Below, piece after piece: positions 1,497 to 49,012 of a stretch of DNA of 64,000 bases. Origin of the DNA: an uncultured Actinomycetes bacterium (GTDB lineage Bacteria > Actinomycetota > Thermoleophilia > RBG-16-64-13); the NCBI GenBank assembly GCA_963806155.1, contig CAWDXC010000011.1:129819-193818 (forward strand), written 5' to 3'. The notes below the pieces were generated by a model that saw only the letters and a program-made list of their open reading frames with translations, had not been told where the DNA came from and ran no database searches. Both the position numbers and the translations under genes were made by a program. The number at the start of each line of letters is the position of its first letter. Position 1 is the first letter of the stretch.

Positions 1497-1515
1497 GAAA
1501 GGAAGCGAGTGGACC

Positions 1516-3529: not shown

Positions 3530-5056
3530 GTGGAGATGGGTGCCGAGGCGAGTAGCAAGACGCCGGATATTCAGGCCGATATCGTCATCGTCGGTGCAGG
3601 GGGCGCAGGCCTGGCGGCTGCCATCACCGCGGCCGAGAAGGGCTGCAATAGCATCATCCTCGTGGAGAAGACCGGGTCCCCCGGTGGTAGCACTGCCATG
3701 GCCCACGACATCTTCGGTGTCGAAAGTCCGGTGCAGGACCGCGCATGGATGGACACCTCGAAGGACGAGATCTTCAATATCCACATGGATTGGACCCACT
3801 GGACCGTGGATCCGCGCATCGTGCGGATGTTCGTCGACCGGGCAGGTGACACCGTTCGGTGGCTTGAAGAAAAAGGGATGGAGTTCCGGCTCTGGCCGAT
3901 GTATCCGAATCAGGCGCCGATCATCCGCCACGCCATCAAGGGGCGGGGAGTCGAGCTGTGCAAGATGCTTCGCAGGAACGTCGAAGAGCTGGGAGGCAAG
4001 ATCCTCACCCGCACAAAGGTGACCAAGATCCTGCGTGCGGATAGCGGTGAGGTGACCGGCATCGTCGCCCAGACTAAAGACGGCGAGATTGCCATCGGGG
4101 CCAAGACGGTCATCATCAGTACCGGTGGATATGGCGCCAACCGCGAGATGCTGAAGAAGTACTACCCGTACTACCACGACACCATGGAGTACGACGGCCC
4201 GCGCAATAACACCGGTGATGGCATCGTTCTGGCCCAAGAGGCGGGCGCGGCTCTTGCGGGTTTGGGTTCGATGAACCTGAGTGGCCCAAGCAGCCTGCCT
4301 CGCTCCGGCAACGACTTCGTGAATGTCGATGGAGCAGTGGATGCCAAGGGTGATCCCCTGAAGATCTGGTTCACTCCATTCTTCCTTGAACCAGACTCCC
4401 TCTGGGTGAACCTGAACGGCAAGCGCTACGTGAACGAGGGCTACATCCTTCAATTCTTCGCCTACGGGCACATCACCGCCCGTCAGCCGCAGGGTCTGTC
4501 CTTCACTCTCTACGATAGCGACGCCATCCGTCGCAAAGAGAAAGAGGGCATCTACAACCAGATGGCGCCCTGCTGGTTCCCGGCCGAGACCTACGTGTGC
4601 CACATCCCGCTGCCCGGACTGGAGCGAGAACTGCGCAGGCCCAACGATCTCATCAAGATCGCCGACACGATCGAGGACCTTGCCGAGTGGATGGGCGTGG
4701 ACCCTGCAATGTTGAAGGCCACCATCGATGAGTACAACGCGGCCTGCGATGCGGGCTATGACGGTGTCTTCGGCAAGGACCGGAAGTACCTGCAACCGCT
4801 GCGGACGCCGCCGTTCTTCGCGCTCAAAGGCCACGTAAACATCTGCGACACCATCGGCGGCATCAAGATTAACGAGAAGATGGAAGTCATCGACGTCGAG
4901 GGCAAGGTCATTCCCGGTCTCTACGCTGCCGGCGTGACCACAGGCGGTTGGGAAGGCGAGACCTACGACTATAACCTCACCGGCCACCTGGTGGGTTTCG
5001 CCGTCAATTCGGGTCGCACTGCCGGCGAGAGTGCGTACGCATACGTGGGGAAGTGA
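3530..5056 (+). CDS. FAD-dependent oxidoreductase, fumarate-reductase / 3-ketosteroid-dehydrogenase-like flavoprotein (FAD_binding_2)
   Basis: Dinucleotide-binding motif DIVIVGAGGAGLAAA, plus GSxxM, ISTGGYGAN and HLxGxxVxNSGRTAGE motifs. GTG at 3530 or ATG at 3536 with RBS GAGGGAGAGG. 508 aa. Confidence 0.8.
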   Translation: MEMGAEASSKTPDIQADIVIVGAGGAGLAAAITAAEKGCNSIILVEKTGSPGGSTAMAHDIFGVESPVQDRAWMDTSKDEIFNIHMDWTHWTVDPRIVRMFVDRAGDTVRWLEEKGMEFRLWPMYPNQAPIIRHAIKGRGVELCKMLRRNVEELGGKILTRTKVTKILRADSGEVTGIVAQTKDGEIAIGAKTVIISTGGYGANREMLKKYYPYYHDTMEYDGPRNNTGDGIVLAQEAGAALAGLGSMNLSGPSSLPRSGNDFVNVDGAVDAKGDPLKIWFTPFFLEPDSLWVNLNGKRYVNEGYILQFFAYGHITARQPQGLSFTLYDSDAIRRKEKEGIYNQMAPCWFPAETYVCHIPLPGLERELRRPNDLIKIADTIEDLAEWMGVDPAMLKATIDEYNAACDAGYDGVFGKDRKYLQPLRTPPFFALKGHVNICDTIGGIKINEKMEVIDVEGKVIPGLYAAGVTTGGWEGETYDYNLTGHLVGFAVNSGRTAGESAYAYVGK

Positions 5057-5082
5057 CTTCTTCATCGACTAAGGGAGCCTAG

Positions 5083-5349
5083 ATGGCATACAAGATCAGC
5101 GACGAGTGCGCGATGTGCGGGATGTGCGTGTGGGAGTGCCCGAACAGCGCGATCACTGAGGGCGACATGATCATGGAGATCGATCCGTACAAGTGCACGG
5201 AGTGCGTGGGCTCGAACCCTTCGCCTCGATGCGTGAAGGAATGCCCGAACGACGCCGTGGTGCTTGACCCTGCCCACGAAGAAACCAAGGAGCAGCTGCT
5301 AGCGAAGTGGGAGGGACTTCATCCTGGTGAGACACCAAAGATCTTCTGA
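5083..5349 (+). CDS. 2[4Fe-4S] ferredoxin (YfhL-like)
   Basis: CAMCGMCVWECP and CTECVGSNPSPRCVKECP cluster motifs. RBS AAGGGAG. 88 aa. Paralog of 8705..8986. Confidence 0.8.
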   Translation: MAYKISDECAMCGMCVWECPNSAITEGDMIMEIDPYKCTECVGSNPSPRCVKECPNDAVVLDPAHEETKEQLLAKWEGLHPGETPKIF

Positions 5350-5597
5350 TTCTTCGTAGTCTCAGTTCTCTAAAAGGGGCGGCAGTTGTAGTTTGCACCG
5401 GCTTGGGTGAGGTTTCAGGCGCCCTGTGGGCCGAGGGAACCCCCAACAATTCGGACACCCCGTTTCTCTGGTCTCTGGTCCATCTGCCTCGGGGAAGTGC
5501 CATCTTCTCAGCTGCTTCCTGTCCGCAGGCCGGTGCAAGTAGCCGCCGCGACCTGTCATTGTGCCGAAGAGTGTTGGCGAACCCCAAGGAGATCAGC

Positions 5598-6381
5598 ATG
5601 AGTTCGACTGGCCAACAACTCTATGCGGAACGCGAGAGACGGTTCAATGACATCGTGGCGCTGAAAAGGCCGGACCGGGTTCCCGTGATTCATCTTGTCA
5701 ATCTCTATTTCCCCACGGCGATCAAGGGGATCTCACATCGGGACGCCGGCTACGACCATGAGCTGCGTACAGATGCATGAGGGAAGCGGATCTCGATTTC
5801 GGCTGGGACTTCGCGGTGCCCAACGCGCTCTTCTCCTTCCTGAGCCTGGAGGCCTTCGGCATCAAACAGATCAAATTGCCGGGAGGCGATCTTTCCGAGG
5901 ATTCGCCCTTTCAGTTCGTCGAGGATGAGTAGCTGCGCGAGGACGAGTACGACGCCTTTCTTGGCGACCCGAACGGTTTCACCATGCGAACGATGTTTCC
6001 GCGGCTGGGGGACAAGCTCGCCCGCCTCGGGCAGGTGCCGCTACCCCCGCTGTTCTGGTTCTCCACCTCGTACCACCTGCCAATCGACGGTAGCAACATG
6101 CTTGCCGCTCCGCCGATGCGGAGCGCTCTTCAGGCGCTACTCGACCTGGCTGAGGCAACCAAAGAGAACAACATCGCTCTGGCAGCGCACATTACGGGAT
6201 GGCGACCCTCGACTACCCCTACGGCTTCGGCGTAGCTGGGGCCGCTGCCTTGGACGTGGTCTCGGATTTTTTCCGAGGCCTGCGGGGCGGCAGCCTCGAC
6301 ATCTACAGAAACCCGGCCAAACTCCTCGCGACCATCGAGCTGATGCACCCGTGCAGCACTCGGGCCGCGGCTACTAAGTAA
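5598..6381 (+). pseudogene. Uroporphyrinogen-decarboxylase-family (URO-D/MtaA-like) gene, disrupted
   Basis: Good start (AAGGAG-N7-ATG at 5598) and a URO-D-like N-terminus MSSTGQQLYAERERRFNDIVALKRPDRVPV. The reading frame then passes through three frames with an in-frame TAG near 5928 (…FQFVEDE*LREDEYDAFLGDPNG…). The C-terminal part (…SDFFRGLRGGSLDIYRNP…) is in a third frame. Confidence 0.45.
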
Positions 6382-6580
6382 AATAGGATATGGATTGAAA
6401 AGGCGCAGTAATTAGGATATCTTGGGGGCGACCGCCTGCAGGTCCTAATGGACGTGGCGGGTTCGACGGCCTGTGGCTCGGGCTTCCCGCCTCGACATCG
6501 CATCGCAAAGCGGCGGGCATTGCGAGCGTCAACGCCAGCGTGGATCGCGCAGGACTGACTGAGCAAGGGAGACCGGAATC

Positions 6581-8101
6581 ATGGATCTTACGGCAACAGG
6601 AAAGAGCCCCGACGTGCGGGCAGACGTAGCCATCATAGGCGGCGGGGGCGCCGGCTTGTCAGCCGCCCTCGCCGCCCTCGAGCTGGGCTCTACGTCGGTC
6701 TTGCTGCTCGAGAAGATGCCCTCTCCAGGCGGGAGTACCGTCATGGCTCACGACATCTTCGGTATCGAAAGTCCTGTGCAGAAACGGGCCTGGTTCAATA
6801 CCTCGCGGGACGAGATCTTCAAGACCCACATGGACTGGACCCACTGGACGGTCAATCCTCGGATCGTTCGCGCCTTTGTCGACAAATCGGGCGACACCAT
6901 CGCCTGGCTCGAGACAATGGGGCTCAGCTTCCGGCTTCTGCCCATGTATCCCAACCAGTCGCCACTCATCCGGCATTCGATCGAAGGGCGGGGGATCAAG
7001 CTGGTGAAGGTCCTGCGCGAGAACGCCGAGGGCCGGGGTTTGAAGCTACTCACCCGGACACGGGCCAAGAAGATCCTACGGGCCCAGAGTGGAGAGGTGG
7101 TCGGCGTGCTGGCCGAGACTGCCAACGGTGAGGTGACCATAGGGGCGAAGACGGTCATCATCGCCACGGGCGGCTACGGAGGCAACCGGGAGATGCTCAA
7201 GAAGTATTATCCTCACTACAAAGAGAGCATGACCTATGACCCGCCCCGTAGCAACACCGGGGACGGCATCACTATGGCCATCGAGGCCGGTGCCGACACC
7301 GCCGGTTTGGGCGCCGTGAACCTGCACGGCCCGGCTTTCTTGCCCCGGTCGGCTGCCGACATGATGGAGATCGACGACGTCTTGGACGCCCACGGCAGCC
7401 CGCTGAAGCTGCCCATCATGATCGCGTCGCTGGAGCCCGACACCATCTGGGTGAACAAACTGGGCGAGCGCTTCACCGACGAGGGTCGCATCCTTCAGTT
7501 CTTCGCCTACGGTTACGCCGTAGTCAGGCAGCCCGAAGGCCTTGCCTACACGCTTTACGACAGCGACCTGGTGCAACAAAAGGAGAAGGAGGGCGTCTAC
7601 TGCCAGCCGGCGCCTGGGTGGCACCCGCATGACACGTACTGCGCCCATTTCCCCTTGCCCGGTTTCGAACGGGAGATGCGCAAAGGTAATGACAAGATCA
7701 AGATTGCAGATTCCTGGGACGAGATCGCAGTGTGGATGGGAGCGGATCCCCCCGCGCTCCGAGCCACCGTGAACGAATACAACGTCGCCTGCGATCAGGG
7801 CCACGACCCGGTCTTCAACAAAGACCGTCAGTATCTGCGTCCGCTGCGCACGCCGCCCTTCTACGCGATCGAAGGGCACGCCATGATCGCCGATACCGTT
7901 GGCGGTATCAAGATCAACGAAAAGATGGAAGTCATTGACACCGCGGGCCGCGTCATCCCCGGACTACTCGCGGCCGGCACCACCACCGGAGAGTGGGAGG
8001 CCGAGGCCTACGACTACCACCTGACTGGTCACTTGGTGGGCTTTGCCATCAACTCCGGCCGCATCGCCGGGGAGACCGCCATGGGCTACTTGGCGGGCTA
8101 G
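6581..8101 (+). CDS. FAD-dependent oxidoreductase, paralog of 3530..5056 (~60% identity by eye)
   Basis: DVAIIGGGGAGLSAA motif and the same conserved blocks as 3530..5056. RBS GGGAGACC. 506 aa. Confidence 0.8.
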   Translation: MDLTATGKSPDVRADVAIIGGGGAGLSAALAALELGSTSVLLLEKMPSPGGSTVMAHDIFGIESPVQKRAWFNTSRDEIFKTHMDWTHWTVNPRIVRAFVDKSGDTIAWLETMGLSFRLLPMYPNQSPLIRHSIEGRGIKLVKVLRENAEGRGLKLLTRTRAKKILRAQSGEVVGVLAETANGEVTIGAKTVIIATGGYGGNREMLKKYYPHYKESMTYDPPRSNTGDGITMAIEAGADTAGLGAVNLHGPAFLPRSAADMMEIDDVLDAHGSPLKLPIMIASLEPDTIWVNKLGERFTDEGRILQFFAYGYAVVRQPEGLAYTLYDSDLVQQKEKEGVYCQPAPGWHPHDTYCAHFPLPGFEREMRKGNDKIKIADSWDEIAVWMGADPPALRATVNEYNVACDQGHDPVFNKDRQYLRPLRTPPFYAIEGHAMIADTVGGIKINEKMEVIDTAGRVIPGLLAAGTTTGEWEAEAYDYHLTGHLVGFAINSGRIAGETAMGYLAG

Positions 8102-8157: not shown

Positions 8158-8625
8158 ATGGAGCTCACATATGACAGCATGGTCAAGTTCATGGAGGAGT
8201 ACTTCCCCGTATACAGCGAATACGGCCAGTTTCCAGAGACCGTGAACCGCATGAAGGACTTCTTCGCGCCGGACCTGGAATTCACCGGGTACATGGGCTT
8301 TCCCGAAGGGCTGCTGGTCTACCCGGACCGCAAGTCATTCCTGGACTTCGACATTTCGCATCCCTGGGCTATCGAGAGACTGACTCCTCTCGACATGATG
8401 GTTGACGAGAGACGGAGAATAGTATTCGTGATAATCAAGTTCGAATTCGTGGACACGGAGACGGGAAAGGTCCTGGTCGAGGACCTGGGGGTGACCCAGT
8501 ACCACCTGGCGCTGGACGAAAACGACACCATAAAGATCAAGAAGCTGATCTTCTTCCCACAGCGGCTCGTGCCTGGAGCGAAGACCGGCAGCGACGTCTT
8601 TGGGTTCGATCATCGGCAGGGCTGA
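8158..8625 (+). CDS. Hypothetical small protein, possibly NTF2/SnoaL-like fold
   Basis: ATG at 8158 with RBS GGGGGTGG. 155 aa, no recognisable motifs. Inserted between the flavoprotein and ferredoxin of the second module. Confidence 0.35.
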   Translation: MELTYDSMVKFMEEYFPVYSEYGQFPETVNRMKDFFAPDLEFTGYMGFPEGLLVYPDRKSFLDFDISHPWAIERLTPLDMMVDERRRIVFVIIKFEFVDTETGKVLVEDLGVTQYHLALDENDTIKIKKLIFFPQRLVPGAKTGSDVFGFDHRQG

Positions 8626-8704: not shown

Positions 8705-8986
8705 ATGGCTTACATGATTACCGATGACTGCATAATGTGTGGGCTGTGCGCATGGGAATGCCAGAACGAGGCGATCACTGAGGGTGATGGGAAGTTCGTG
8801 ATCGACCCTGACAGATGCTCGGAGTGCGTGGGCGCTGCGCCCGCACCGAAATGCGTGAACGAGTGCACGACGGGCGCCACCGTCCCAGACCCCTCTCGCC
8901 AGGAGACCCGGGAGCAGCTGCTCGCCAAGTGGCAGGCTCTTCACCCAGGCAAGACTCCGAGGACCTTCAACGGGACAGGGGCATAG
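8705..8986 (+). CDS. 2[4Fe-4S] ferredoxin (YfhL-like), paralog of 5083..5349
   Basis: CIMCGLCAWECQ and CSECVGAAPAPKCVNECT motifs. ATG at 8705 with RBS GGAGAGGAAC. The six-frame ORF 8600..8986 carries an N-terminal extension that lacks an RBS. Confidence 0.8.
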   Translation: MAYMITDDCIMCGLCAWECQNEAITEGDGKFVIDPDRCSECVGAAPAPKCVNECTTGATVPDPSRQETREQLLAKWQALHPGKTPRTFNGTGA

Positions 8987-8990
8987 CCGA

Positions 8991-11615
8991 ATGCCTGAAT
9001 CCAGCGGGCGGCCCCCACGCGAGGCCGGAGAGCAGACCCAGGTTCGCAACATCAGCTGGGTTGGTCCGCCGTCGGGCGCCAACGCCTCCATGGTGGACGT
9101 GAAGGACGGCAAGATCGTCCGCATCCGTCCCGCCCGCTACTACGAGCAGTACACGAGAGAAGAGGTCAAGCCCTGGGTGATGCACGCCCGCGGCCAGACC
9201 TTCGAGCCCAGCAACAAGAGCCTCATCCCGCCACTCAGCCTCGCCTACAAAAAGCGCGTGTTCTCGCCGGGCCGGGTGCGCTATCCGCTCAAGCGCGTCG
9301 ACTTCGATCCCACGGGCGCGCCGGGCTCCACCGGCTCGGGCGGCCGCAATGCCCAGAACCGCGGGGTCAGCAAGTATGAGCGCATCTCCTGGGATAAGGC
9401 GCTCGACATCATCGCCGCCGAGATGCTGCGGGTCAAGAAGACCTACGGGTCGACTGCGATCTTCAGCCAGTCTGACTGCCACGGCGAGACCAAAGTGGTG
9501 CATGGCTCACATGGAGCTATGCGTAAGCTGCTGACGATGTTCGGCGGCTACACCCTTCAGTCCCGCGACCCCGATAGTTGGGAAGGCTGGTGGTGGGGAG
9601 CCAAGCACGTCTGGGGGTGCGAACCGGTCGGACAGCAAATGCCGCAAGTCAATGTGGTTTATGACATAGCCAAGCATACTGAGCTCCTGCTCTTCTGGGG
9701 ATGCGATCAAGAGACCACGCCCTGGGGTTGGGGTGGGCAGTTGCCCAGCCGGCTCAGCTTCTGGTGGACGGACCTTGGCATCAAGCAGATCTACATTGCT
9801 CCTGACCTCAACTATGCTGCCGCTGTCCATGCCGACAAGTGGATCCCCATCCTCCCCAACACCGACGCCGCCCTCTACCTGGCTATCGCGTACGAGTGGT
9901 TCAAGAACGGCACCTACGACAAGGAGTACCTCGAGACCCGCGCCTACGGCGTGGATGAGTTCGAGGACTATGTCATGGGCCGGGAGGACGGCCAGGCCAA
10001 AACGGCCGAATGGGCCGCGCCCATCACCGGGGTGCCGGCCCGCATCATCAAAGCGCTGGCCGCCGAGTGGGCTTTCAAGCGCACGACGGTGGCGATCGGC
10101 AACGGGGGGCCGGGCATCCGCGGCCCCTACGCCACCGAGCCGGCCCGCCTGCAGGCGCTCTGCCTCGCCATGCAGGGTCTGGGCAAACCGGGCTGCCACC
10201 AGGCGAAGATGATTGAGTGGTCCTTGCTCGGTGATCCGGGCAGTCTCTCGTCCCCGAATCCGGTCGTCATGTCCAACATGATGCCCGCCTACCGGGGGAG
10301 TCACCCAGGCGTCACCAATCATCCTTCTTTCATTCCAAAGAGCCTGGTGCCAAAAGCCCTTCTCGAGGGACAGATCGACTGGTATGGGTGCGAGGCTGAG
10401 TTCGCTTCGCGCGAGGACCAGTTCGTTCACTACCAGTACCCGGCAGAAGGCTGCTCAAAAATCCACATGATCTGGACAGACTCACCATCGTGGATCACCT
10501 GCTGGAACTGCGGGAACGATTATGTCAAGGCCGTCCGGACTCCAGATATCGAGTTCATGCTGGCCCAGCATCCCTGGCTGGAGAACGACTGCCTCTTCGC
10601 CGACATCATCCTGCCCGTCAACACCATGATGGAAGAGGACGACATCGGTGACGATGCGTTCAGCGGCCAGGTCAGCCTCGTATTCGCTGCAGATCGGGCG
10701 ATCGAGTCCTTGGGCGAGTCGGTCAGCGACTACGAGGTGGTCTGCAAGATCGCCGAGCGGCTGGGCATGCTGGAGGAATACACGGAAGGGAAGACAGTAT
10801 CCGAGTGGATCAGATTCGGGTATGAGGCGAGTGGCATAGCGGAGCGCGTCAGCTGGGATGAATTCCGGAAGAAGGGTTACTACGCGATTGAAACCGACCC
10901 CGATTGGGAGAAGCGCCCCGCCGGCCTCGTCAAGTTCTACGAAGACCCCGAGAACAACCCGCTCAGCACCCCCACCGGCAAGATTGAGTTCTGCTCGACA
11001 GGTCTGGCTGAGCACTTCCCCAACGACGAGGAGCGGCCCCCGGTGCCCCATTGGATCCCGGAGGGGGTGTCTCACCAGGAGACATTAGGGACCGAGCGCT
11101 CGAAGAAGTATCCTCTACTGGTGATGAGTAACCATCCCCGTTGGGGAGTGCACTCCCAGCACGACGACGTCACCTGGCTCCGGGAGATCGAGACCTGCAA
11201 GGTGAAGGGGCCCGACGGGTACCTGTACCACCCCCTGTGGATGAATCCCGCTGACGCGACGACACGGGGGATCGAGCACGGGGACGTAGTGGCCCTCTTC
11301 AATGAGCGGGGCACCGTCTTGGCCGGGGCCTACCTCACCCAGCGCATCATGCCGGGAGCGGTAGGCATCGACCACGGAGCCAAGTACGATCCCATCGCCG
11401 TCGGGGAGACCGACCGTGGTGGCGCCATCAACACCATCGTGCCCCGCAATGTCACCTCCAAGAACGCCTGCGGCCATGCCGTCTCCGGCTTCTTGGCCGA
11501 GGTAAAGAAGGCCGACCTGGCAGCGCTCAAGGCGAAGTATCCCGAAGCCTTCAGCCGGGAGTGTCACATCACCGCCGGGCCTTGCCTCGCCGGCTTCACC
11601 GAGGGAGGTACCTGA
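8991..11615 (+). CDS. Molybdopterin (bis-MGD) oxidoreductase of the pyrogallol-phloroglucinol transhydroxylase large-subunit (AthL) / resorcinol-hydroxylase family
   Basis: 874 aa. There is no N-terminal Cys cluster, which fits AthL-type enzymes. Long conserved blocks are shared with the paralog at 46433..49012 (HNPDSWEGW.WG, MQGLGKPG, CTNFERWDI, YPL..SPHPR.S.H). The start is 4 nt after the ferredoxin stop, suggesting translational coupling. Confidence 0.8.
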   Translation: MPESSGRPPREAGEQTQVRNISWVGPPSGANASMVDVKDGKIVRIRPARYYEQYTREEVKPWVMHARGQTFEPSNKSLIPPLSLAYKKRVFSPGRVRYPLKRVDFDPTGAPGSTGSGGRNAQNRGVSKYERISWDKALDIIAAEMLRVKKTYGSTAIFSQSDCHGETKVVHGSHGAMRKLLTMFGGYTLQSRDPDSWEGWWWGAKHVWGCEPVGQQMPQVNVVYDIAKHTELLLFWGCDQETTPWGWGGQLPSRLSFWWTDLGIKQIYIAPDLNYAAAVHADKWIPILPNTDAALYLAIAYEWFKNGTYDKEYLETRAYGVDEFEDYVMGREDGQAKTAEWAAPITGVPARIIKALAAEWAFKRTTVAIGNGGPGIRGPYATEPARLQALCLAMQGLGKPGCHQAKMIEWSLLGDPGSLSSPNPVVMSNMMPAYRGSHPGVTNHPSFIPKSLVPKALLEGQIDWYGCEAEFASREDQFVHYQYPAEGCSKIHMIWTDSPSWITCWNCGNDYVKAVRTPDIEFMLAQHPWLENDCLFADIILPVNTMMEEDDIGDDAFSGQVSLVFAADRAIESLGESVSDYEVVCKIAERLGMLEEYTEGKTVSEWIRFGYEASGIAERVSWDEFRKKGYYAIETDPDWEKRPAGLVKFYEDPENNPLSTPTGKIEFCSTGLAEHFPNDEERPPVPHWIPEGVSHQETLGTERSKKYPLLVMSNHPRWGVHSQHDDVTWLREIETCKVKGPDGYLYHPLWMNPADATTRGIEHGDVVALFNERGTVLAGAYLTQRIMPGAVGIDHGAKYDPIAVGETDRGGAINTIVPRNVTSKNACGHAVSGFLAEVKKADLAALKAKYPEAFSRECHITAGPCLAGFTEGGT

Positions 11616-11675
11616 TAGGCAGGGTACTAGTGATCGATCCCGCTATCTGCCACCAGCTGGGAGACGGGACAGAAG

Positions 11676-11843
11676 GTGAGCACCGTGACCGACAACCACG
11701 GAGACTTCTGGCTCACGGGACTGCCCGACATCACTTACACGTTTACGATCGAGAAGGAAGGTTATCCAACCCAGAAGCTAGGACCCCTCGATGCAACCGC
11801 CGCCGATCAGAACGTGGAGGACGTGGAGTTGCGGCACGAGTGA
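11676..11843 (+). CDS. Small ORF or gene fragment encoding a carboxypeptidase-regulatory-like (transthyretin-like) beta-sandwich segment
   Basis: VSTVTDNHGDFWLTGLPDITYTFTIEKEGYPTQKLGPLD matches the TD..G.F.L.GLP.G.Y.L....GY pattern of CarboxypepD_reg domains. Only ~56 codons, possible GTG start, weak RBS. Lies 60 nt downstream of the AthL-like gene. Confidence 0.2.
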   Translation: MSTVTDNHGDFWLTGLPDITYTFTIEKEGYPTQKLGPLDATAADQNVEDVELRHE

Positions 11844-12047
11844 TGGCGGCTGACTAGACACCCCAAGGGTATGGGTTTCTGTGCGTCCGAGGTGAGTGAT
11901 TTGAAATGGCACACGAAAGCGAAAACCACATATGAGCGCTCAGGCGGAGGGGGAAGGAGGTGGGCATAGCCGTCGGCACGCGAAGAATGGCCTGGGCCGT
12001 TGAGGGAAGGCTTGAAGGACGCAGACAAAGGATTGGGGGTAGTTGCT

Positions 12048-13493
12048 ATGGACGAAGAGCGTAGGATATGCAGCAGGCGGGAGTTTCTTCAGCTCGCAGG
12101 TATCGCGGGCGCGAGTTTGGGGCTCGCCGGAGGTTTGGGGGGGGTGCTATCCGCGTGTGGCGGAGAAGAGACGACGACCACGGCCAGTTCCAGTACGGGA
12201 AGTACGGGAGGTGGGACCCAGACGACTGCGGCGGAGAGTACGACCACGTCCGTCAGTGCGACAACTTCGGTGTCCACGTCGGGTGAGGCCGGCCGGACGC
12301 TGAAGATCGGCATGGTTACACCGACCACGGGGGCTCTTGCGCCGTTTGCCCTATACGATGACTGGGCGGTCAAACACCTGGGGGGAGCCCTCAAGGACGG
12401 GTTGGTGTGCGCCGACGGCAAAGTGCGCCAGATCGAAGTCATCAAAAAAGATACCCAATCAGACTCCAACCGGTCGGCCACAATCACCGGCGACCTCATT
12501 CAGAACGACAATGTCGACGTGGTCGTCAGTTCGGGCGCTCCTGACACCACCAGCCCCTCGGCCGACGTAGCCGAGTCCCTGGGTTGTCCGAGCATAAGCT
12601 CGGCCGGACCCTGGCAGGCTTTCTACTTCGACCGCAAGCCACCGGAAGGGGGCTTCAAATGGACCTACGGATTCCTGATCGGGTCGGAGCAGACCATCCT
12701 GAACTTCTCCGTGATGTTCGACCAGGTCCCCAACAATAAAGTAGTAGGTATGTTGCTCCCCAACGATGCCGATGCCCATGGCTGGATGGCCGAAAACGCC
12801 GCCCCGGCTGTATTTAAGGAGAAGGGCTACACCCTGGTCCTGTCTGACTGGTACACGCCGGGAACGGAGGACTTCACCAGCATCATCAGCCTCTTCAAGA
12901 GCGAAGGGTGCGAGATCGTGTGCGGCACCAACACCGCGCCCGATTTCACCAACTTCTGGAAGCAGGCCTACCAACAGGGCTACCAACCCAAGCTCGTCAG
13001 CACCGGTAAGGCCCTCCTCTTTCCGCAAACCTTGGACGCTATAGGCGATATCGCCGACGGTCTTCTGGGCGAAATCGGTTGGGATCGCACGTACCCTTAC
13101 AAAGATTCGCTCACCGGCCAGACATCGGAAGAGCTGTGGCAGGAAATCGAGGCCGACACAGGTATCCAGCCCGGGCCGGCCAGCACGGGCATGTATGCCT
13201 CTCTCGAATGGGTTATAGACGCCTGCAGACGGGCGACGAACCCCGAAGACAAGAACGCATTCATCGAGGCCCTCAAGACCACCAACAACACGTTCGTCTG
13301 CGGCAAGCTCGACATGACCGCGCCTATGGAGCCCGACTGGCATCCCGTCCCTAACGTCTACAAGATGGCGTTCGCCGGAGGCCAATGGCGTCTCTCCAAC
13401 GGCGGCAAATACAAGTTCGAACTGCATGTGTGCGCCGCGGTAACGTGCCCGGGTCTGGAAGTCAAAGACCAGGTCGTGCCTATGGCCTACTAG
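12048..13493 (+). CDS. ABC transporter substrate-binding lipoprotein, Liv/branched-chain-amino-acid-type (Peripla_BP_6-like)
   Basis: Tat-like RREFLQLAG motif and a lipobox LSAC, followed by a Thr/Ser-rich linker. ATG at 12048. The ORF-track start at 12000 is TTG. Confidence 0.8.
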   Translation: MDEERRICSRREFLQLAGIAGASLGLAGGLGGVLSACGGEETTTTASSSTGSTGGGTQTTAAESTTTSVSATTSVSTSGEAGRTLKIGMVTPTTGALAPFALYDDWAVKHLGGALKDGLVCADGKVRQIEVIKKDTQSDSNRSATITGDLIQNDNVDVVVSSGAPDTTSPSADVAESLGCPSISSAGPWQAFYFDRKPPEGGFKWTYGFLIGSEQTILNFSVMFDQVPNNKVVGMLLPNDADAHGWMAENAAPAVFKEKGYTLVLSDWYTPGTEDFTSIISLFKSEGCEIVCGTNTAPDFTNFWKQAYQQGYQPKLVSTGKALLFPQTLDAIGDIADGLLGEIGWDRTYPYKDSLTGQTSEELWQEIEADTGIQPGPASTGMYASLEWVIDACRRATNPEDKNAFIEALKTTNNTFVCGKLDMTAPMEPDWHPVPNVYKMAFAGGQWRLSNGGKYKFELHVCAAVTCPGLEVKDQVVPMAY

Positions 13494-13601: not shown

Positions 13602-13966
13602 GCTTGCTGGTCACTAGGGACGTCGAGCCTGTGCGCGGGAGATGCAGCTTGAACCGGCCCACCTGGCGTCTCGGGGTTCATCTCGGCGCTTCCGGTATTC
13701 GAATATACTCTACTGTTTGATACAACGTTCTAGAAACGCTAGTATGAGTAGCATGATTCGGCCCGGCGAGTTGCCAGCACTTCAAGGCGTAGGCGGTGAA
13801 TGGTGCGCCGCTCAGCCCGAGGCGAAAGCTGAGCGGCCGCCGCAGTCGCTGATGGCGATAGGAGGCACCGTCTTTCTAGTCGGGTGGAGGATTCTTCTTC
13901 GCTGACGGTATGGTTGGTCGTGCCGCGACTCGGCCGGCTGGTTCGTAATGTCGCTGAGGTTTGAGA

Positions 13967-14920
13967 ATGGTACGCGTATTAAGTCTGAGGGAACTCGAGA
14001 GAGTGAGCGGCGAGCCACGCTCCACCATCTATTACTACCTCGGCCGTGGCTTGCTTCCCAAGCCACAGAAGACCGCATCTGGCCGCTCGCTCTACTCCGA
14101 GGATCACCTCAACTTGTTGCTCGAGATCGCCGCGTTGAAGAGTTCAGGGCTGTCGCTCTTCGAGATTGAGCGGCATCTGCAGCATAAAGTCACCCGCGTT
14201 GACCAGGCGAGCGTCGACCTAGCCTCACAGGAGCACAAGCGGCTCCACAACCACATTCTTGCCGTAGCAGCCGATGAGTTCTTCACGAAGGGTTACAAAG
14301 GAACGCACGTCAACGACATCATTCATAGACTTGGAATCACCGTTACTGTCTTCTACACCCACTTCCCAAGCAAGCATGCTCTGTTGGGAGAGTGTGTCGT
14401 GGCACTGGTCGATTGGAGCAACGAGTACGTCGAATATCAGCGCCCCCTGATTCACGATTCCATCGATGAACTCCTGTGGTCTCTGTTCGCGCAATTCCGC
14501 GTGTTTCAGCTTGGTTCAGCTGCGCGGGCAGTGCTCGAGGTGGAGGGGCCGAGGAAAGAGGGCAGCCTCCAGCGAAGCCTGGAAGCAGCTCATGCGAGCA
14601 TCGTCGATCGAATCACGAGAGTGGTACGCGAATTCACTGTCGCGCGAGATGGGTCGTCCGAGGTTGCGCCCGAACTCATCGCTGAGATGATTTTTGCCGC
14701 GTCAGACCCACTATTCCGTTTTTCATCACAGGGGCAGGATCGGAGGGCACTCATACAGGCAAACCTCTATGTTATTCTGTCGATCCTTCTCGCCCTCAGC
14801 GGGCGGGCGGACATCGATGCCGAAATGCGGCGCTACGAGAAGTTGGCGGACTATATGTCGGCCCATATGCCTCCTCTGCCGCCGGTCCTCGAATTGCAGG
14901 CGGACTTCTCCAGCTCGTGA
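13967..14920 (+). CDS. Transcriptional regulator with an N-terminal MerR-type HTH fused to a TetR-type HTH and ligand-binding domain
   Basis: Residues 1-70 (LSLRELERVSGEPRSTIYYYLGRGLLPKPQKTASGRSLYSEDHLNLLLEIAALKSSGLSLFEI) fit the MerR consensus. Residues ~85-140 (ILAVAADEFFTKGYKGTHVNDIIHRLGITVTVFYTHFPSKHALL) fit the TetR_N consensus. ATG at 13967 with RBS GAGGT. Confidence 0.75.
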   Translation: MVRVLSLRELERVSGEPRSTIYYYLGRGLLPKPQKTASGRSLYSEDHLNLLLEIAALKSSGLSLFEIERHLQHKVTRVDQASVDLASQEHKRLHNHILAVAADEFFTKGYKGTHVNDIIHRLGITVTVFYTHFPSKHALLGECVVALVDWSNEYVEYQRPLIHDSIDELLWSLFAQFRVFQLGSAARAVLEVEGPRKEGSLQRSLEAAHASIVDRITRVVREFTVARDGSSEVAPELIAEMIFAASDPLFRFSSQGQDRRALIQANLYVILSILLALSGRADIDAEMRRYEKLADYMSAHMPPLPPVLELQADFSSS

Positions 14921-19694: not shown

Positions 19695-19744
19695 ACAGCG
19701 AGGATTTCATGTCGGATGTGCTGAACGAGGAGCAGTCAGATGCG

Positions 19745-20562
19745 CAAGCCTTGGCTTTCGGAGAGCGTATCGGGGTGTAGATGACGCGCACTCCCTCCGT
19801 GCGAAACACCTCGTCGAAAGGTCCCGAGTACTTGGCGTCGCGGTCATGGATCACGAACTGGACCTGAGCCAATCGATCTTCTATGGCCAAGTTGCGAGCC
19901 TGCTGGGTGACCCAGGAAGAATCGGGATGGGCACTGACCCCGGCCAGGTGCGCCTTGCGGGTCAAGAGCTCGATGAAGAAAAGGACGTAGATCGTCTTTG
20001 ACCAGACGGTCTCTACGCAGAAGAAGTCGGACGCCAGGATGCCGGCCGCCTGCTGAGTCAAGAACTCCCTCCACGAAGGGCCGACTCGTCGCGGAGAAGG
20101 CGGGAGACCGTGACGGCGAAGCAGTAGGCAGATGGCGGTTGCCGAAACTGAGACGCCCAGCTTCCTTAGCTCACCCTGGAGGCGCCGGTAGCCCCAGCGG
20201 GGGTTCTCCCGAGCGAGCCGCAGGACGAGCGTCGCCACCTCCTCCGAGATTCTCGGTCGACCCGGCCGGCGTCTACCTCGGTAGGTCCGCTTGCGTCCTA
20301 CCAGCTCACGGTGCCAGCGCAGCACGGTGTGTGGCGAAACCGGCAGACATCGCCACAGTTCACGCGGCAGGAGCTGGCTTGCTGCCGCCAGCAGGATCCG
20401 ATCCCCACGCCGTAGTCCCAGCCGACGACCTCGTGAGAGAACGCGCAACTGGTGACGCAAGACCAGGATCTCAATGTCGCGAGCAGCACCGTCACGATCG
20501 CTGCCTAGGGTGAGAACACGCAGAAGCCGACGGAGGGCAAAGTAGAAAAGCGACAGTAGCAT
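19745..20562 (-). pseudogene. DDE (rve) transposase, C-terminally truncated
   Basis: The ORF-track frame continues to 19456, but the residues after …RSPKA are unrelated read-through that overlaps the serine recombinase remnant. Confidence 0.65.
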
Positions 20563-46432: not shown

Positions 46433-49012
46433 TTAGGACTTCCTCTCCCATTTCTCCACCTGCACGAGGCAGGAGTTTGATGCCATGCCAACAGAGGTCG
46501 GGGTGACGTGGCGTCTTGAGGTCAGAAGATTGATGCACCCGGCGCGGTCCGGCGATTCCCCCGGTGTGCCGAGCGGTAGGTAGTCGGCGCAGGACTCGTA
46601 GGAGTGAACGGTGCCGGGAGGAAGACGTTCGGTCACCTGCGCCGCGAGGATGACCGAACCGCGATCGTTGAACGCGCGGACGAGATCTCCGCCCTGGATC
46701 CCGCGGGTGCTGGCGTCTTCTGTATTGATCCGCATGATCCAATAGTGGTGACCGTCTATGAGAACGCGGTGGTCCTTGACATCGTTTGTCCACGACCCTT
46801 TTGCATCCCCGTGGGTATGGAAGCTGAAGCGAGGGTGAGGGCTAACCAGTTGCAGTGGGTATTTGCCGAGCAGCTCCTCCGTGTGGTGGCCTTCCCAGGA
46901 AGGGATGTACTGCGGGCCCATGGCGGGGCGCTCGGGATCGTCCAGGGCTGCCCGTGTGAGACTGGAAGCCACGAACTCGATCTTGCCGGAAGTGGTCTGC
47001 AGCCCCTTGTTTCTCAGAGTATCCCACGGCGCCGGTCCCCAGTTGGGGGTATCCCTTTCCCGATCTTCGGCGAACCATCGAAACGACGGAGTGGATTTGT
47101 GATCGGCGGGGAAGGGGACCACGTAGTAGCCCTTCTTCTCGAACTCCTCCCAGCTCATGCGGCTAGAGATATCGCTCGCCTCGAAGATCCGCTTGACCCA
47201 CTCGAGATCGCTCTGCCCGCCTTCGGTGTAGATCCCACCCAGGCCCAGACGGTCGGCGAGAAGCGCGAAGATGTCGTAGTCGGACTTCGACTGGCCCACA
47301 GGCTCTATGCACTTCTTCTGCAGGACTATTACCCTGTGGTTCAGTTGGCTGAAGGTGTCACATCCATATCCGGCCGCACTGGTCCATTCGCCGATGTCCC
47401 AGCGCTCGAAGTTGGTGCAGGCCGGCAGAACTATGTCGGCGAATTTCGTCTCGCCTTCAAACCAGATCGACTGATTGACCACGAAGGGCACCTTGCCCTC
47501 CCGATACGCTTTCACATACCGATTGGTCTCGGTCATGGTCCCGAAGTAGGAGTTGCCGTACTTGTAGTACATGCCCACGTGGGGATAGCCGGGTGCCGGG
47601 TACTCGTATTTCTGGAACTGGGACTGGATCGATGACCCGCAGAAGCCCTTGCCCCGCCATTCGAGATGCTCGTGCATCATGGCCTCTGGGACATGGAGAC
47701 GGGGCACCGTCTGGCCTTCCGTGGAATGGTGAGGATTCCCGGGTAGATACCCGTTGGGCCACATCCGATTGAGAAGGCGGTAACCCGAGGCGGTGTTGAC
47801 CGGGTCGCCGGAGATGCCACCCTCGCCGTATCCGGGGAACCAGAACGATTCGTCCGACGGAGCCCCGGTGGTCGTGGACCAGATATTGCTGCCAGGTTTG
47901 CCCAGCCCTTGCATGGCGGCTAGGGCAATCATGGTTCGGGCCCATTCGTTGCCCGTCGCGGAACGACATGCGCCTCCCCAGCCAGTGAACCCGCCGGCGG
48001 CCAACATGGTCTTCTTGCTGCCCCATTCCCGAGCGAGCGCCCGGATCTCCCGGGCCGGCACGCCGCATTCGGTCTCGGCCCACTGCGGTGTCTTCGGTCG
48101 GCCGTCCGTACGTCCGAGCACGTAGTCCTTCCACTCCTCAAAACCGACCGTGCGGGACTCAATGTACTCCTGGTCGTAGAGGTCTTCGGTAAGCCAGATG
48201 AAGGCGATGGCCAAACCGAGGGCCACATCGGTGCCGAGCCGGGGCGCGAGCCACTTGTCCGAGAACAGTCCCGCCGTATGGTTGAAATAGGGGTCGATGA
48301 AGACCATCTTCACCCCCATCTCTTTCAACCAAAATCGGCGGCTGGTGCTCTCGAAAGCCGCGTAGCAGCCGCTTGTTGACTCTGGGTCGGACGACCAGAA
48401 GACCACCATATCGGTATGCTTGAGAGCGTCTTCCAAGAGGTCATACTGCTCGGGGATGCCGAGGCGGTCGCTGCAACCCCACATATGCATGCCACCCCAG
48501 TGCCAGCCCTCCCAGCTGTCCGGATTATGCTCGGCGTGGGTCCAGCCCACCAGATTCATGAACCGATAGTAAGCACTAAAGCGATAGCCCAGATTTCCCC
48601 AGAGATGGTGAGACCCCACGGACGAAAGAATCCCTGCGGGACCCAGTTCCCGCTTTACGCGGGCCATCTCCTCGGCCACTATGTCCAGCGCTTCTTCCCA
48701 GGCGATGGGCTCGTAGCCGGACTCGCCTCGCCGGTTAGTGTTGCGATCGCCCTTGGGGTCGAAATCCACACGCTTGAGGGGGGTGAGGATGCGCTTCGGC
48801 GAGTAGATGGTCGACCTATGGGCCAGTGTGTAGGGAGACAAGGTAGTCCGGTGGGGCGGGGCGAAGGCTCGTCCTTTTGCCTGTATCGTCCAAGATGGTG
48901 CGTCATCACTGTCGAACTGAAGAGGTACGATCCGAACAATAGTGCCGTCCCGGACATCGACATGTACCGGTCCGCCGGTCGTCAGGTTGGTCAATCGTTC
49001 AACCCGCTCCAT
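46433..49012 (-). CDS. Pyrogallol-phloroglucinol transhydroxylase large-subunit (AthL)-like bis-MGD molybdoenzyme
   Basis: 859 aa. The N-terminus MERVERLTNLTTGGPVHVDVRDGTIVRIVP and blocks such as HNPDSWEGWHWGGMHMWG, GKPGSNIWSTT, CTNFERWDIGEW and YPLQLVSPHPRFSFHTHGD match what I recall of AthL. No N-terminal Fe-S Cys motif. Confidence 0.85.
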   Translation of the reverse strand: MERVERLTNLTTGGPVHVDVRDGTIVRIVPLQFDSDDAPSWTIQAKGRAFAPPHRTTLSPYTLAHRSTIYSPKRILTPLKRVDFDPKGDRNTNRRGESGYEPIAWEEALDIVAEEMARVKRELGPAGILSSVGSHHLWGNLGYRFSAYYRFMNLVGWTHAEHNPDSWEGWHWGGMHMWGCSDRLGIPEQYDLLEDALKHTDMVVFWSSDPESTSGCYAAFESTSRRFWLKEMGVKMVFIDPYFNHTAGLFSDKWLAPRLGTDVALGLAIAFIWLTEDLYDQEYIESRTVGFEEWKDYVLGRTDGRPKTPQWAETECGVPAREIRALAREWGSKKTMLAAGGFTGWGGACRSATGNEWARTMIALAAMQGLGKPGSNIWSTTTGAPSDESFWFPGYGEGGISGDPVNTASGYRLLNRMWPNGYLPGNPHHSTEGQTVPRLHVPEAMMHEHLEWRGKGFCGSSIQSQFQKYEYPAPGYPHVGMYYKYGNSYFGTMTETNRYVKAYREGKVPFVVNQSIWFEGETKFADIVLPACTNFERWDIGEWTSAAGYGCDTFSQLNHRVIVLQKKCIEPVGQSKSDYDIFALLADRLGLGGIYTEGGQSDLEWVKRIFEASDISSRMSWEEFEKKGYYVVPFPADHKSTPSFRWFAEDRERDTPNWGPAPWDTLRNKGLQTTSGKIEFVASSLTRAALDDPERPAMGPQYIPSWEGHHTEELLGKYPLQLVSPHPRFSFHTHGDAKGSWTNDVKDHRVLIDGHHYWIMRINTEDASTRGIQGGDLVRAFNDRGSVILAAQVTERLPPGTVHSYESCADYLPLGTPGESPDRAGCINLLTSRRHVTPTSVGMASNSCLVQVEKWERKS

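Follow-up and report, generated by a model that had tools for sequence, protein, structure and literature searches.

An AthL-family gene followed by a probable bthL relic and preceded by the ferredoxin of a separate flavoprotein module in an uncultured actinomycete

Results

A decayed bthL beside an AthL-family gene

Comparison with related loci shows that the small ORF at 11676-11843, downstream of an AthL-family gene (paralog A1), is a non-functional 3' remnant of bthL, the iron-sulfur beta-subunit gene that usually follows athL, and that the ferredoxin encoded upstream is a member of a separately conserved module. This module comprises a flavoprotein, a conserved protein (p155), the ferredoxin and a solute-binding protein (SBP), with a MerR/TetR regulator associated with it. 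Taken together, these two assignments are very probably correct; the arrangement represents ordinary decay of a gene rather than a new type of split enzyme. The features are collected in Table 1, in which positions refer to the window, i.e. the whole 64,000-nucleotide stretch analyzed here. An earlier note, made from the sequence alone, had pointed out the ferredoxin gene, the AthL-like gene and the small ORF, and all three proved to be real on the basis of PDB, Pfam and NCBIfam matches.

Table 1. Position and identity of the features discussed in the text.
Feature	Position	Strand	Remarks
Paralogous flavoprotein (3530-5056) and ferredoxin (5083-5349), no athL attached	3530..5349	+	Pfam
FAD_binding_2 flavoprotein, first module gene	6581..8101	+	PF00890 1e-48; 77-80% identical orthologs head the module in L110, L111 and L112
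p155, conserved, accompanies the flavoprotein	8158..8625	+	90% identical in L001, 75-77% in L110 and L112
YfhL/Alvin-type 2[4Fe-4S] ferredoxin	8705..8986	+	93 aa, module member
AthL-family molybdopterin (bis-MGD) large subunit, paralog A1	8991..11615	+	Intact, purifying selection
5' remnant of bthL	11615..11653	+	DNA alignments to L001, L002, L003, L004 and L005; protein alignment to the BthL N-terminus
3' remnant of bthL	11654..11843	+	CarboxypepD_reg/transthyretin-like barrel, BthL residues ~209/225 to 276
Peripla_BP_6 SBP of the module, TAT-like signal	12048..13493	+	PF13458 2.9e-37
MerR-TetR fusion regulator, module-associated	13961..14920	+	Pfam MerR_1 and TetR_N; homologs in L001 and L110
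Second AthL gene, A2	46433..49012	-	PDB 4v4c_A, 1174.6 bits

A1 is an AthL-family large subunit with an altered pocket

A search of the PDB with A1 gave AthL of Pelobacter acidigallici (chain 4v4c_A) as the nearest solved structure (E 1e-138, residues 33-842), and Pfam returned the domain architecture of the AthL family, with AhtL-like_1st (PF21423, 5.5e-10), Molybdopterin (PF00384, 7e-20) and Molydop_binding (PF01568, 4e-17). In the alignment with 4v4c_A, the motif of the Mo-ligand serine is retained, H144, D174, S175 and W176 of AthL corresponding to H164, D195, S196 and W197 of A1. The same alignment places Ser173 at the position of Arg153 and pairs the FPGYAEGG segment of AthL with a gapped, unrelated stretch, leaving no equivalent of Tyr404. 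We take Arg153 and Tyr404 to be residues of the substrate/co-substrate pocket. A1 therefore does not have the strict pocket of pyrogallol-phloroglucinol transhydroxylase as defined by these two residues, and its substrate and reaction may differ.

The gene is also without the adjoining partner of an alpha-beta holoenzyme, a BthL gene with three [4Fe-4S] cysteine groups and a barrel. As claimed before, no bthL accompanies it: tblastn detected neither an intact bthL nor a third athL in the 64 kb of the 322-kb contig that the search reached.

What remains of bthL

The small ORF (55 codons) lies inside the 3' remnant and begins 60 nt past the athL stop. The carboxypeptidase-regulatory-like segment attributed to it was recovered as a Pfam match to CarboxypepD_reg (PF13620, E 2.6e-9). 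This match covers positions 31-81 of the 82 in the profile, the first ~30 positions of a complete C-terminal barrel being absent, and it is the sole Pfam match, with no Fer4_11-type N-terminal Fe-S domain. When the BthL of the intact locus L003 was used as tblastn query, a single match was found in the window (11637-11831, E 3e-18, 57% identity, BthL residues 209-273), a similarity which is well beyond chance. When the small ORF was searched against a database, the sole match was the ORF itself, and no homologous small-protein family was found. Its AF2 single-sequence model, which is weak evidence, had a pLDDT of 47 and no strands.

Alignment of the 11540-11900 region with the DNA of L001 and L002 revealed the start region of bthL, then a gap of ~590 nt, and a match again from ACCGACAAC. 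In L003 and L004, the athL stop and the bthL start overlap as TGATG; the window reads TGATA, and the former start codon is ATA at 11615-11617 (G to A at 11617). The codons that follow (..GRVLVIDPAIC..) are in a frame different from that of the small ORF and, as protein, align with the N-terminus of BthL (MGKVLVIDLAICNGCHNC). Of bthL, no more is left than ~39 nt at the 5' end and ~190 nt at the 3' end; protein alignment indicates that BthL residues ~1-26 and ~225-276 alone survive. The missing ~590-625 nt include every Fe-S cysteine codon and also the part of the C-terminal barrel that forms its first strand(s). The deletion junction is situated somewhere in 11654-11681, where ~30 nt have diverged. 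In the window lineage, bthL has lost its start codon by an ATG to ATA change, and an internal deletion of about 590-625 nt has removed all the Fe-S cysteines and the first barrel strand(s), leaving the two pieces in different reading frames.

The substitution pattern of the relic was compared with that of its surroundings. The relic has a dN/dS of 0.295 and a dN of 0.235, against 0.066-0.117 and 0.045-0.072, respectively, for five flanking genes; its ratio (~0.3, not 1) comes from a small sample of 120 non-synonymous sites and fits decay over part of the window branch only. Window-unique replacements number 12 in ~55 residues (22%), versus 1-3 in L001, and their rate is ~4 times that of AthL. 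The small ORF is preceded by a GTG start and by GAAGG, possibly a weak Shine-Dalgarno sequence, and might be translated into a peptide of 52-55 residues.

Split subunit, minimised subunit and remains of a subunit had been offered as readings of this arrangement. The DNA alignment with orthologous loci points to the last, in the form of a bthL 3' end, and gives no support to the other two. The earlier note had also set a non-coding remnant without structural likeness to the BthL barrel against its own reading; the segment is indeed a remnant of non-coding type, and it does resemble the barrel, because it is descended from BthL.

The ferredoxin belongs to another conserved unit

The stop codon of the ferredoxin gene (TAG, ending at 8986) is separated by 4 nt from the athL ATG at 8991, as previously described. 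The protein has the cysteine pattern of YfhL/Alvin-type ferredoxins (CxxCxxCxxxC...CxxCx8CxxxC, Cys 9, 12, 15, 19, 38, 41, 50 and 54), matches PDB entry 3EUN at 4.8e-20 (3EUN/1BLU, ~5e-20) and scores 86.7 bits with the NCBIfam YfhL family NF033683 (cutoff 86); its dN/dS is 0.066. The idea that it represents a piece of BthL did not survive: it belongs to this other family, its 21.6-bit score with BthL reflects generic motif similarity, and in L001 it is accompanied by a near-full-length bthL. In L110, L111 and L112, the same flavoprotein, p155 (75-77%) and ferredoxin (77-84%) lead directly to an SBP gene, and athL is missing from the position after the ferredoxin. Its ECQ/ECT motifs, which replace the usual Pro after the last Cys of each motif, are common to the whole flavoprotein-associated subfamily; as they are the same in the athL-less operons, they give no sign of an adaptation of the ferredoxin to AthL.

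The module flavoprotein has vinyl phenol reductase VprA as its nearest named family and is a relative only of this enzyme (NF053717, 257.7 bits for a cutoff of 600). For p155 (dN/dS 0.069), no match was found in Pfam, NCBIfam or the PDB, and the AF2 single-sequence model was of low confidence; a homolog adjoins the flavoprotein in five further metagenome loci. The SBP is the ortholog of SBP2 of L001 (87% identical) and is 70% identical to the L110 SBP encoded directly after the ferredoxin. The flavoprotein-ferredoxin duplication reported upstream was confirmed, the two flavoproteins being 64% identical and the two ferredoxins 61%. Between the pairs, the ORFs of 5350-6580 are broken, lie in three frames and include an in-frame stop.

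L110, L111 and L112 also have, close to the module, AthL homologs belonging to a third type (45-48% identity), so that the module and AthL-like enzymes do have a functional link, even with a ferredoxin that is not a subunit. By parsimony, it appears that an athL-bthL pair entered the module before the window and L001 diverged, the alternative being a deletion from the L110/L112 lineages; no insertion scar was found for athL-bthL in the module.

bthL in related loci

Where the orthologous locus is intact (75-80% AthL identity), athL is directly followed by a gene for a BthL of 276 residues, and the L003 protein matches P. acidigallici BthL (4v4c_B) at 1e-52. Among 106 AthL-family genes from 79 genome loci, 80 are followed by a bthL start at most 400 nt downstream. 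Nevertheless, athL without an adjoining bthL is common among relatives: of 103 genes whose downstream sequence extends for 1 kb or more, 23 are of this kind. Fourteen loci are without a full-length bthL within ~6 kb, and 11 of them come from MAGs in which a different sampled locus does carry athL and bthL as a pair. A barrel-only gene was present in none of the 81 loci (L001-L081) searched with BthL.

In a neighbor-joining tree, the AthL proteins of the window and L001 are sisters, nested in a clade with L002-4th, L003, L004, L005, L006 and L007, all of which have bthL. This nesting makes the bthL loss a recent one. The sister locus L001 contains both the ferredoxin gene and a near-full-length bthL, in which three small insertions (+1, +2, +1) shift the frame. 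Its dN/dS (0.18 vs 0.17 for intact pairs) is the substitution pattern of a constrained gene, and this bthL is ambiguous, either a very recent pseudogene or an assembly error. The window and L001 also differ by one SBP gene and by the order of the CCG/FAD_binding_4 genes, and mobile-element genes are found at 17.7-20.6 kb of the window.

Discussion

Other explanations of the locus

The best surviving of the other explanations, although decidedly unlikely, is that athL and bthL are disappearing together as a cassette, A1 being already functionless with its disabling mutations yet to come. The broken ORFs upstream, the differences from L001 in SBP and CCG/FAD_binding_4 gene order and the mobile-element genes, as marks of local decay and rearrangement, would agree with this. 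However, the 2.6-kb athL, with no frameshift and no stop, is undamaged beside a relic of ~230 nt deprived of its start codon and ~600 nt. Its 41-48 window-unique replacements in ~865 residues represent ~5% of sites on the window branch, far from the proportion in the relic. Furthermore, A1 and the L001 AthL are separated by a dN of 0.070 (dN/dS 0.105), whereas neutrality since the bthL lesion would, by a rough estimate, have raised dN to ~0.11-0.18.

It is still less probable that the ferredoxin took over electron transfer at the Mo centre and that BthL, having become dispensable, decayed. The L001 bthL is not relaxed, which implies that ferredoxin and BthL co-existed under selection for most of the history of the lineage. 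The ferredoxin subfamily and its motifs are unchanged in athL-less operons, the unit duplicated in the window comprises a flavoprotein and a ferredoxin gene but no athL, and none of the 23 other orphan athL genes has this type of ferredoxin in its vicinity. These points outweigh those on the other side: bthL decay, by deletion in the window and by the three insertions in L001, is seen solely in the lineage where athL directly follows the ferredoxin, at a spacing that permits translational coupling, and, in the AthL of this lineage, 12 positions that are otherwise invariant carry shared replacements and the rate is modestly accelerated, to an extent that depends on the outgroup used.

That the ferredoxin supplies the Fe-S clusters and the small ORF the barrel, the two acting together as separate polypeptides for BthL, is extremely unlikely: the tight gene order, common to L001, and the CarboxypepD_reg match speak for it, but a two-cluster ferredoxin unrelated to the three-cluster Fer4_11-type BthL, already present in athL-less operons and found alongside bthL in L001, is combined here with an incomplete, fast-changing domain that is flanked by a mutated bthL start in another frame and has no counterpart as a small protein or as a barrel-only gene in the loci searched. 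This reading is largely refuted. Almost no credence can be given to a collapsed or chimeric assembly hiding an intact bthL in the true genome, for although the source resembles a metagenome assembly and split genes suggest indel errors in related long contigs (e.g. L016, L022, L025 and L026), the ATA start and the diverged junction are point lesions independent of the deletion, and misassembly would not give rise to the window-specific replacement excess in the 3' part.

Probable status of A1

A1 itself is intact and under purifying selection, and is most likely still active in the pathway of a phenolic compound. Whether it pairs with a BthL from another athL-bthL locus of the genome seems to us evenly balanced; such a partner in trans appears usual for orphan athL paralogs of related Actinomycetota, and it is from these relatives that we infer it here, because the window covers only part of the contig. 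Action of A1 without a beta subunit is possible and somewhat unlikely. More doubtful is the broader proposal that the AthL-like subunit of this lineage, and perhaps the many other orphan paralogs of uncultured Actinomycetota, works without any BthL, either alone or via the adjoining YfhL-type ferredoxin and flavoprotein. If true, a BthL-less AthL would be a natural experiment showing that enzymes of the transhydroxylase type can do without their Fe-S beta subunit or have it replaced. As for an electron-transfer chain differing from that of the redox-neutral transhydroxylase, which the duplication had been thought to suggest, the data give no support either way.

Of the two AthL genes, the second, A2, is closer to P. 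acidigallici AthL; it shares 36% identity with A1. Compared with AthL, it retains the SHH, GYRFS, NPDSWEGW and FPGYGEGGISG motifs. No similarity to BthL was found in 45700-46470, A2 thus having neither bthL nor a bthL relic downstream.

Comparison with known systems

Like AthL of P. acidigallici (4V4C, 1TI6, 1VLD), A1 belongs to the alpha-subunit family with the AhtL-like first domain, has neither an N-terminal Fe-S cluster motif nor a TAT signal, and keeps the D-S-W motif of the Mo-ligand serine and the His144 equivalent; the BthL of the orthologous loci likewise has a similar Fe-S part and a C-terminal barrel. In contrast, A1 is a distant paralog (467 bits vs 1175 bits for A2), its equivalents of Arg153 and Tyr404 are missing and its bthL is a relic.

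Resorcinol hydroxylase RhLS (Aromatoleum/Azoarcus anaerobius) and DbhLS, likened here by description only, are also two-subunit enzymes of the AthL/BthL type acting on phenolic rings. They reportedly catalyze net oxidations which require the beta subunit for electron export. DbhLS is the 3,5-dihydroxybenzoate hydroxylase of Thauera aromatica AR-1. Both are placed in the Ser-coordinating RhL/PgtL clade (PMC10100899).

The next-closest solved relatives of A1 are single-subunit members of the DMSO-reductase family, DorA, TorA and BisC (1EU1, 3e-74; 7L5I, 2e-72), and its top NCBIfam match is bisC_fam (347 bits for a cutoff of 1017). These enzymes consist of a single Mo-bisMGD subunit and lack a beta subunit with Fe-S clusters. 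Since they work alone, a beta-less AthL is mechanistically conceivable; unlike them, A1 carries the AthL-specific first domain and its ancestors had BthL.

The ferredoxin shares its cysteine pattern and C-terminal helix extension with the Alvin-type/YfhL proteins of Allochromatium vinosum (1BLU/3EUN), Thauera aromatica (1RGV) and E. coli (YfhL, 2ZVS), and differs from them by ECQ/ECT in place of the usual Pro. Finally, the bthL relic resembles bacterial deletion pseudogenes in its lost start, large internal deletion, out-of-frame parts and raised non-synonymous rate; nothing in it is unusual for such a pseudogene, and it retains an open frame and a recognisable domain signature.

The AthL-like gene and its flanking ORFs

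The three ORFs described in the earlier note (a ferredoxin gene, the AthL-like gene A1 and a small ORF) were present in the window, whose G+C content is about 60% and whose real genes show a strong third-position G+C bias. Among PDB sequences, the ferredoxin was closest to that of Allochromatium vinosum (3EUN, 4.8e-20) and also matched Thauera aromatica 1RGV and E. coli YfhL 2ZVS; it scored 86.7 bits against the NCBIfam YfhL-family cutoff of 86. Its stop codon is separated from the A1 start by 4 nt. With A1, the large subunit AthL of the Pelobacter acidigallici transhydroxylase gave by far the best PDB match (4v4c_A, 1e-138); DMSO and TMAO reductases, which are single-subunit enzymes, came next at about 1e-74. 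For the small ORF, the Pfam match was limited to profile positions 31-81 of 82. As the note had also stated, A1 is not accompanied by an intact bthL, the Fe-S beta-subunit gene that normally follows athL: neither an intact bthL nor a third athL was found within the 64-kb window.

Positions of the features discussed (window coordinates; a locus handle before the position marks another contig)
Feature	Position	Strand	Description
CCG/FAD_binding_4 genes	228-2991		upstream in the window, downstream in L001
Second flavoprotein-ferredoxin pair	3530-5349		no athL
Paralog ferredoxin	5083-5349		canonical ECP twice
Chain of short ORFs	5350-6580		between first ferredoxin and second flavoprotein; three frames, coding-like composition, one in-frame stop (..FVEDE*LREDEY..)
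Module flavoprotein	6581-8101		
Ferredoxin	8705-8986		93 residues; Cys at 9, 12, 15, 19, 38, 41, 50, 54 (Alvin-type 2[4Fe-4S] pattern)
A1	8991-11615	+	874 residues; Pfam AthL-specific first domain and two molybdopterin domains
Small ORF	11676-11843		55 residues; 60 nt after A1 stop; Pfam CarboxypepD_reg 2.6e-9
Serine recombinase	17694-18776	+	
rve-type integrase/transposase	19456-20562	-	
MazF/PemK toxin gene	24250-24594	-	
Hydantoinase A/B-type set	31359-35282	+	
ORF after A2	45882-46268	-	128 codons; coding-like composition
A2	46433-49012	-	true AthL type; 1175 bits to P. acidigallici AthL vs 467 for A1; all pocket motifs kept
ABC-transporter permease and ATPase genes	52351-55645		
Hydantoinase A/B-type set	55688-60398	+	with acetone-carboxylase gamma-like subunit
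bthL of L001	L001:12647-13484		full-length, three small insertions
Third-type AthL homologs	L110:2-2353	-	divergently upstream of module
	L111:1-360	-	divergently upstream of module
	L112:7709-8194	+	downstream of module

The small ORF is the tail of a bthL pseudogene

A search with the AthL protein returned thousands of homologs, among them one 88% identical on contig L001 and one 80% identical on L002. L001 is syntenic with the window: the flavoprotein, a 155-residue protein (p155), a 93-residue ferredoxin and AthL are followed by the binding-protein gene, and about 840 nt separate athL from the latter. When read over three frames, these 840 nt encode a complete BthL (MGKVLLIDLAICNGCHNCQ...), with all Fe-S cysteine groups and the C-terminal barrel. 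On L002, MGKVLVIDLAICNGCHNCQ... directly follows the orthologous athL and runs to the contig end, and L003, L004 and L005 (AthL identity 77-79%) carry an uninterrupted BthL after athL. The L003 BthL, of 276 residues, matched P. acidigallici BthL at 1e-52.

The window DNA was aligned to these five bthL-bearing loci. The former bthL start and the athL stop share nucleotides, as TGATG in L003 and L004 and as TGATA in the window, a G-to-A change at 11617 in the former start codon. Directly after this start, a run of about 36 nt still codes for ..GRVLVIDPAIC.., in a frame other than that of the small ORF. After some 30 nt that could not be placed, the alignment picks up again at ACCGTGACCGACAAC, the codons for ..TVTTDN(Y/H)GDFW.. 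of the BthL barrel, and runs on to the bthL stop at 11843. Between 590 and 625 nt, approximately, are gone, every cluster-binding cysteine included; the deletion junction is placed only to the interval 11654-11681, a low-gap-penalty alignment being over-fragmented. Furthermore, a tblastn search of the window with the intact L003 BthL gave 11637-11831 as its sole match (BthL residues 209-273, 57% identity, 3e-18).

From these alignments, it was concluded that the small ORF is the tail of a bthL pseudogene; the "CarboxypepD_reg protein" of 52-55 residues (P0124) that is called on the contig is a fragment of a pseudogene. Since four stop codons between A1 and the small ORF close the upstream frame, a read-through fusion to AthL is impossible. 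The comparison with the BthL barrel relied on homology, in sequence and in DNA, to bthL orthologs, not on structure: a PDB sequence search with the small ORF gave nothing significant, and its single-sequence AF2 model was disordered (pLDDT 47), which is weak evidence and too poor for a fold search. Among the options of the earlier note, the remains of a beta subunit is thus the one borne out, and ordinary decay of bthL takes the place of a split. No barrel-only gene was found when 81 loci (L001-L081) were searched with BthL. When the small ORF was used as query in a database search, of low sensitivity for so short a sequence, it recovered only itself on the same 322-kb contig.

Decay of the remnant and constraint on AthL

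In the comparison of the window with L001, dN/dS was 0.066-0.117 (dN 0.045-0.072) for five neighbouring genes and 0.295 (dN 0.235) for the relic. Counted against L003 or L005, 12 amino-acid replacements in the about 55 residues of the relic were specific to the window, compared with 1-3 in L001; the corresponding AthL counts were 41-48 and 27-33 in about 865 residues. Thus, in the window lineage the relic is in decay and changes about four times as fast as AthL, which is still constrained. In a neighbour-joining tree, the window and L001 AthL proteins are sisters within a clade whose other members all have bthL, so that the loss of bthL in the window is recent and lineage-specific.

The full-length bthL of L001 has three insertions (+1, +2, +1) relative to intact orthologs, none of them in a homopolymer. 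As three indels fall within 0.84 kb and none is evident in the surrounding 20 kb or so of genes, it can be argued that they are real mutations. After frame correction, this gene showed a dN/dS of 0.18 against L003 and L005 (0.17 for intact genes) and its branch had no extra length. Therefore, either it was constrained until very recently and has only just become a pseudogene, or assembly errors account for the indels. Whichever holds, this operon has carried the ferredoxin together with a bthL under selection, which weakens the explanation that the ferredoxin displaced BthL.

Relative-rate tests for a speed-up of AthL in the window/L001 lineage depended on the outgroup (p 0.9 to 1e-10) and are weak evidence. 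At twelve AthL positions (20, 24, 163, 176, 222, 229, 403, 430, 547, 570, 625, 632), the window and L001 share one residue where another is invariant in nine bthL-bearing relatives. Three of these changes are lost cysteines (C24V, C176A, C570A), and Q163C adjoins the His144 equivalent. The twelve changes hint at a functional shift after the move of the gene into the flavoprotein operon.

The ferredoxin belongs to a flavoprotein module

The ferredoxin had been proposed as another part of the split subunit. Because its similarity to BthL is that of a generic motif only (21.6 bits), it is not a fission product of BthL, and its homologs occur in operons with no athL after the ferredoxin. The closest ones outside L001 (77-84% identity) are those of L110/L111 and L112, where the flavoprotein (77-80% identical to the module flavoprotein), p155 (75-77%) and ferredoxin are directly followed by a Peripla_BP_6 binding protein, with no athL in between; the MerR-TetR regulator is also present at L110. 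In 28 metagenome loci with more distant flavoprotein relatives, p155 lay beside the flavoprotein in five, and one locus had a ferredoxin. None of the 28 had an AthL-like gene of the A1 or A2 type, the sole molybdopterin-enzyme match (in L093) being 23% identical. Together with the second flavoprotein-ferredoxin pair of the window, these contexts show that flavoprotein, p155, ferredoxin and binding protein form the conserved unit.

The closest AthL relatives (L003-L007) stand in contexts unrelated to this module. It would be most economical to suppose that the common ancestor of the window and L001 gained an athL-bthL pair by insertion between its ferredoxin and binding-protein genes. As to an insertion scar, the spacer after the relic showed no similarity to the ferredoxin-binding protein spacers of L110 and L112.

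In the ferredoxin, ECQ and ECT follow the last cysteine of each cluster motif in place of the usual ECP, a trait common to the flavoprotein-associated subfamily, operons without athL included (P0122, P0125, P0129). For p155, a PDB sequence search gave nothing significant and a single-sequence model (pLDDT 42) was too poor for a fold search. The family named nearest to the module flavoprotein is vinyl phenol reductase, at a score below the family cutoff.

Beside the module in L110, L111 and L112 there is a further AthL homolog, of a third type and 45-48% identical to A1; all three contigs end inside it. On this ground, it is likely that the module and AthL-like enzymes are recurrently linked at the pathway level.

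Genes for AthL without an adjacent bthL

A scan of species-representative genomes covered 79 loci, mostly from uncultured Actinomycetota (Thermoleophilia, Gaiellales), the others from Dehalococcoidia, Oscillospiraceae and further groups. They contained 106 AthL-family genes, 80 of which have a bthL starting at most 400 nt downstream. Of the 103 genes followed by 1 kb of sequence or more, 23, about a fifth, had no adjacent bthL. Thirteen loci had no bthL match above 150 residues in the fetched sequence (flank about 6 kb at most); with L030, which has bthL fragments only, they make 14 loci without a full-length bthL within about 6 kb, and for 11 of the 14 the MAG has an athL-bthL pair at another sampled locus. 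Tandem arrays are common, as in L002 (four athL, two bthL) and L009.

Among other AthL paralogs of uncultured Actinomycetota, whole sub-clades have no adjacent bthL. Such orphan genes are seen in L011, L013, L018, L019, L021, L024, L027-L032 and L048. Nitroreductase-family genes lie directly downstream of the orphan in L027, L029 and L048, a small conserved ORF family directly upstream in L011, L013 and L024 (a Pfam cupin in L013 only), and large FAD_binding_2 flavoproteins nearby in L013, L019, L024, L028 and L031.

Possible functions of A1, and the second AthL gene

In an alignment with AthL, A1 keeps the equivalents of the Mo-ligand Ser175 and of Asp174, Trp176 and His144. Since those of Arg153 and Tyr404 are missing, A1 is a divergent paralog, which may catalyse a reaction other than pyrogallol transhydroxylation.

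We give an even chance to A1 pairing with a BthL whose gene lies elsewhere; orphan paralogs of related genomes plausibly do the same. That it works without a beta subunit is conceivable but doubtful. DorA, TorA and BisC, its next-closest relatives, are single-subunit enzymes and, to our knowledge, the role of the BthL Fe-S clusters in the redox-neutral transhydroxylase reaction has never been explained or assigned. It is improbable that A1, having lost its partner gene, is itself on the way out; the gene is intact and constrained. Least probable of all, and hardly to be expected, is the use of the adjacent ferredoxin by A1.

Downstream of A2, neither bthL nor a bthL relic was found; every A2-type relative sampled has bthL. 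The ORF after A2, suggested earlier as a second barrel like the BthL C-terminus, matched nothing in Pfam, NCBIfam or the PDB and showed no similarity to BthL, and is rejected as such a barrel.

Other genes of the window

The mobile-element and toxin-antitoxin genes fall in a part of the window where G+C climbs, at 16-20 kb, to 0.64-0.67. This mobile-element content fits rearrangements relative to L001, and the CCG/FAD_binding_4 genes lie on opposite sides in the two loci. The chain of short ORFs looks like a decayed gene; no Pfam family and no homolog in the fetched loci was found for it. Across 52000-56000, G+C is 0.49-0.52, against about 0.60 elsewhere, and the ABC-transporter genes of this region may be of foreign origin.

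The two hydantoinase A/B-type sets correspond to acetone/acetophenone-carboxylase-like enzymes near aromatic-catabolism genes. The window also has Amidohydro_2 genes, an AMP-ligase, a 2-oxoacid:ferredoxin oxidoreductase and ABC transporters, and its gene content fits phenolic-compound catabolism.

Comparison with known systems

Multiple copies of "pyrogallol hydroxytransferase" have been noted before in Dehalococcoidia (PMC4959651). In uncultured Actinomycetota and Dehalococcoidia of soil and sediment, the AthL family has undergone great expansion, often with several paralogs per locus beside flavoproteins and transporters, likely for phenolic compounds.

A split beta subunit, if true, would be a new enzyme architecture. 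As the evidence is that of ordinary gene decay, the locus should be neither annotated nor pursued as such. What deserves attention is an intact, constrained athL that has outlived its own bthL, along with the relatives devoid of an adjacent one. Orphan athL genes are candidates for asking whether the alpha subunit functions on its own or paralogs share a beta subunit.

In the literature searched, no split or beta-less AthL/BthL system was found; in reviews, PgtL/AthL and RhL form one Ser-coordinating clade (PMC10100899). Set against these systems, the window locus belongs to the AthL family, with a beta gene that has decayed, and is no new architecture.
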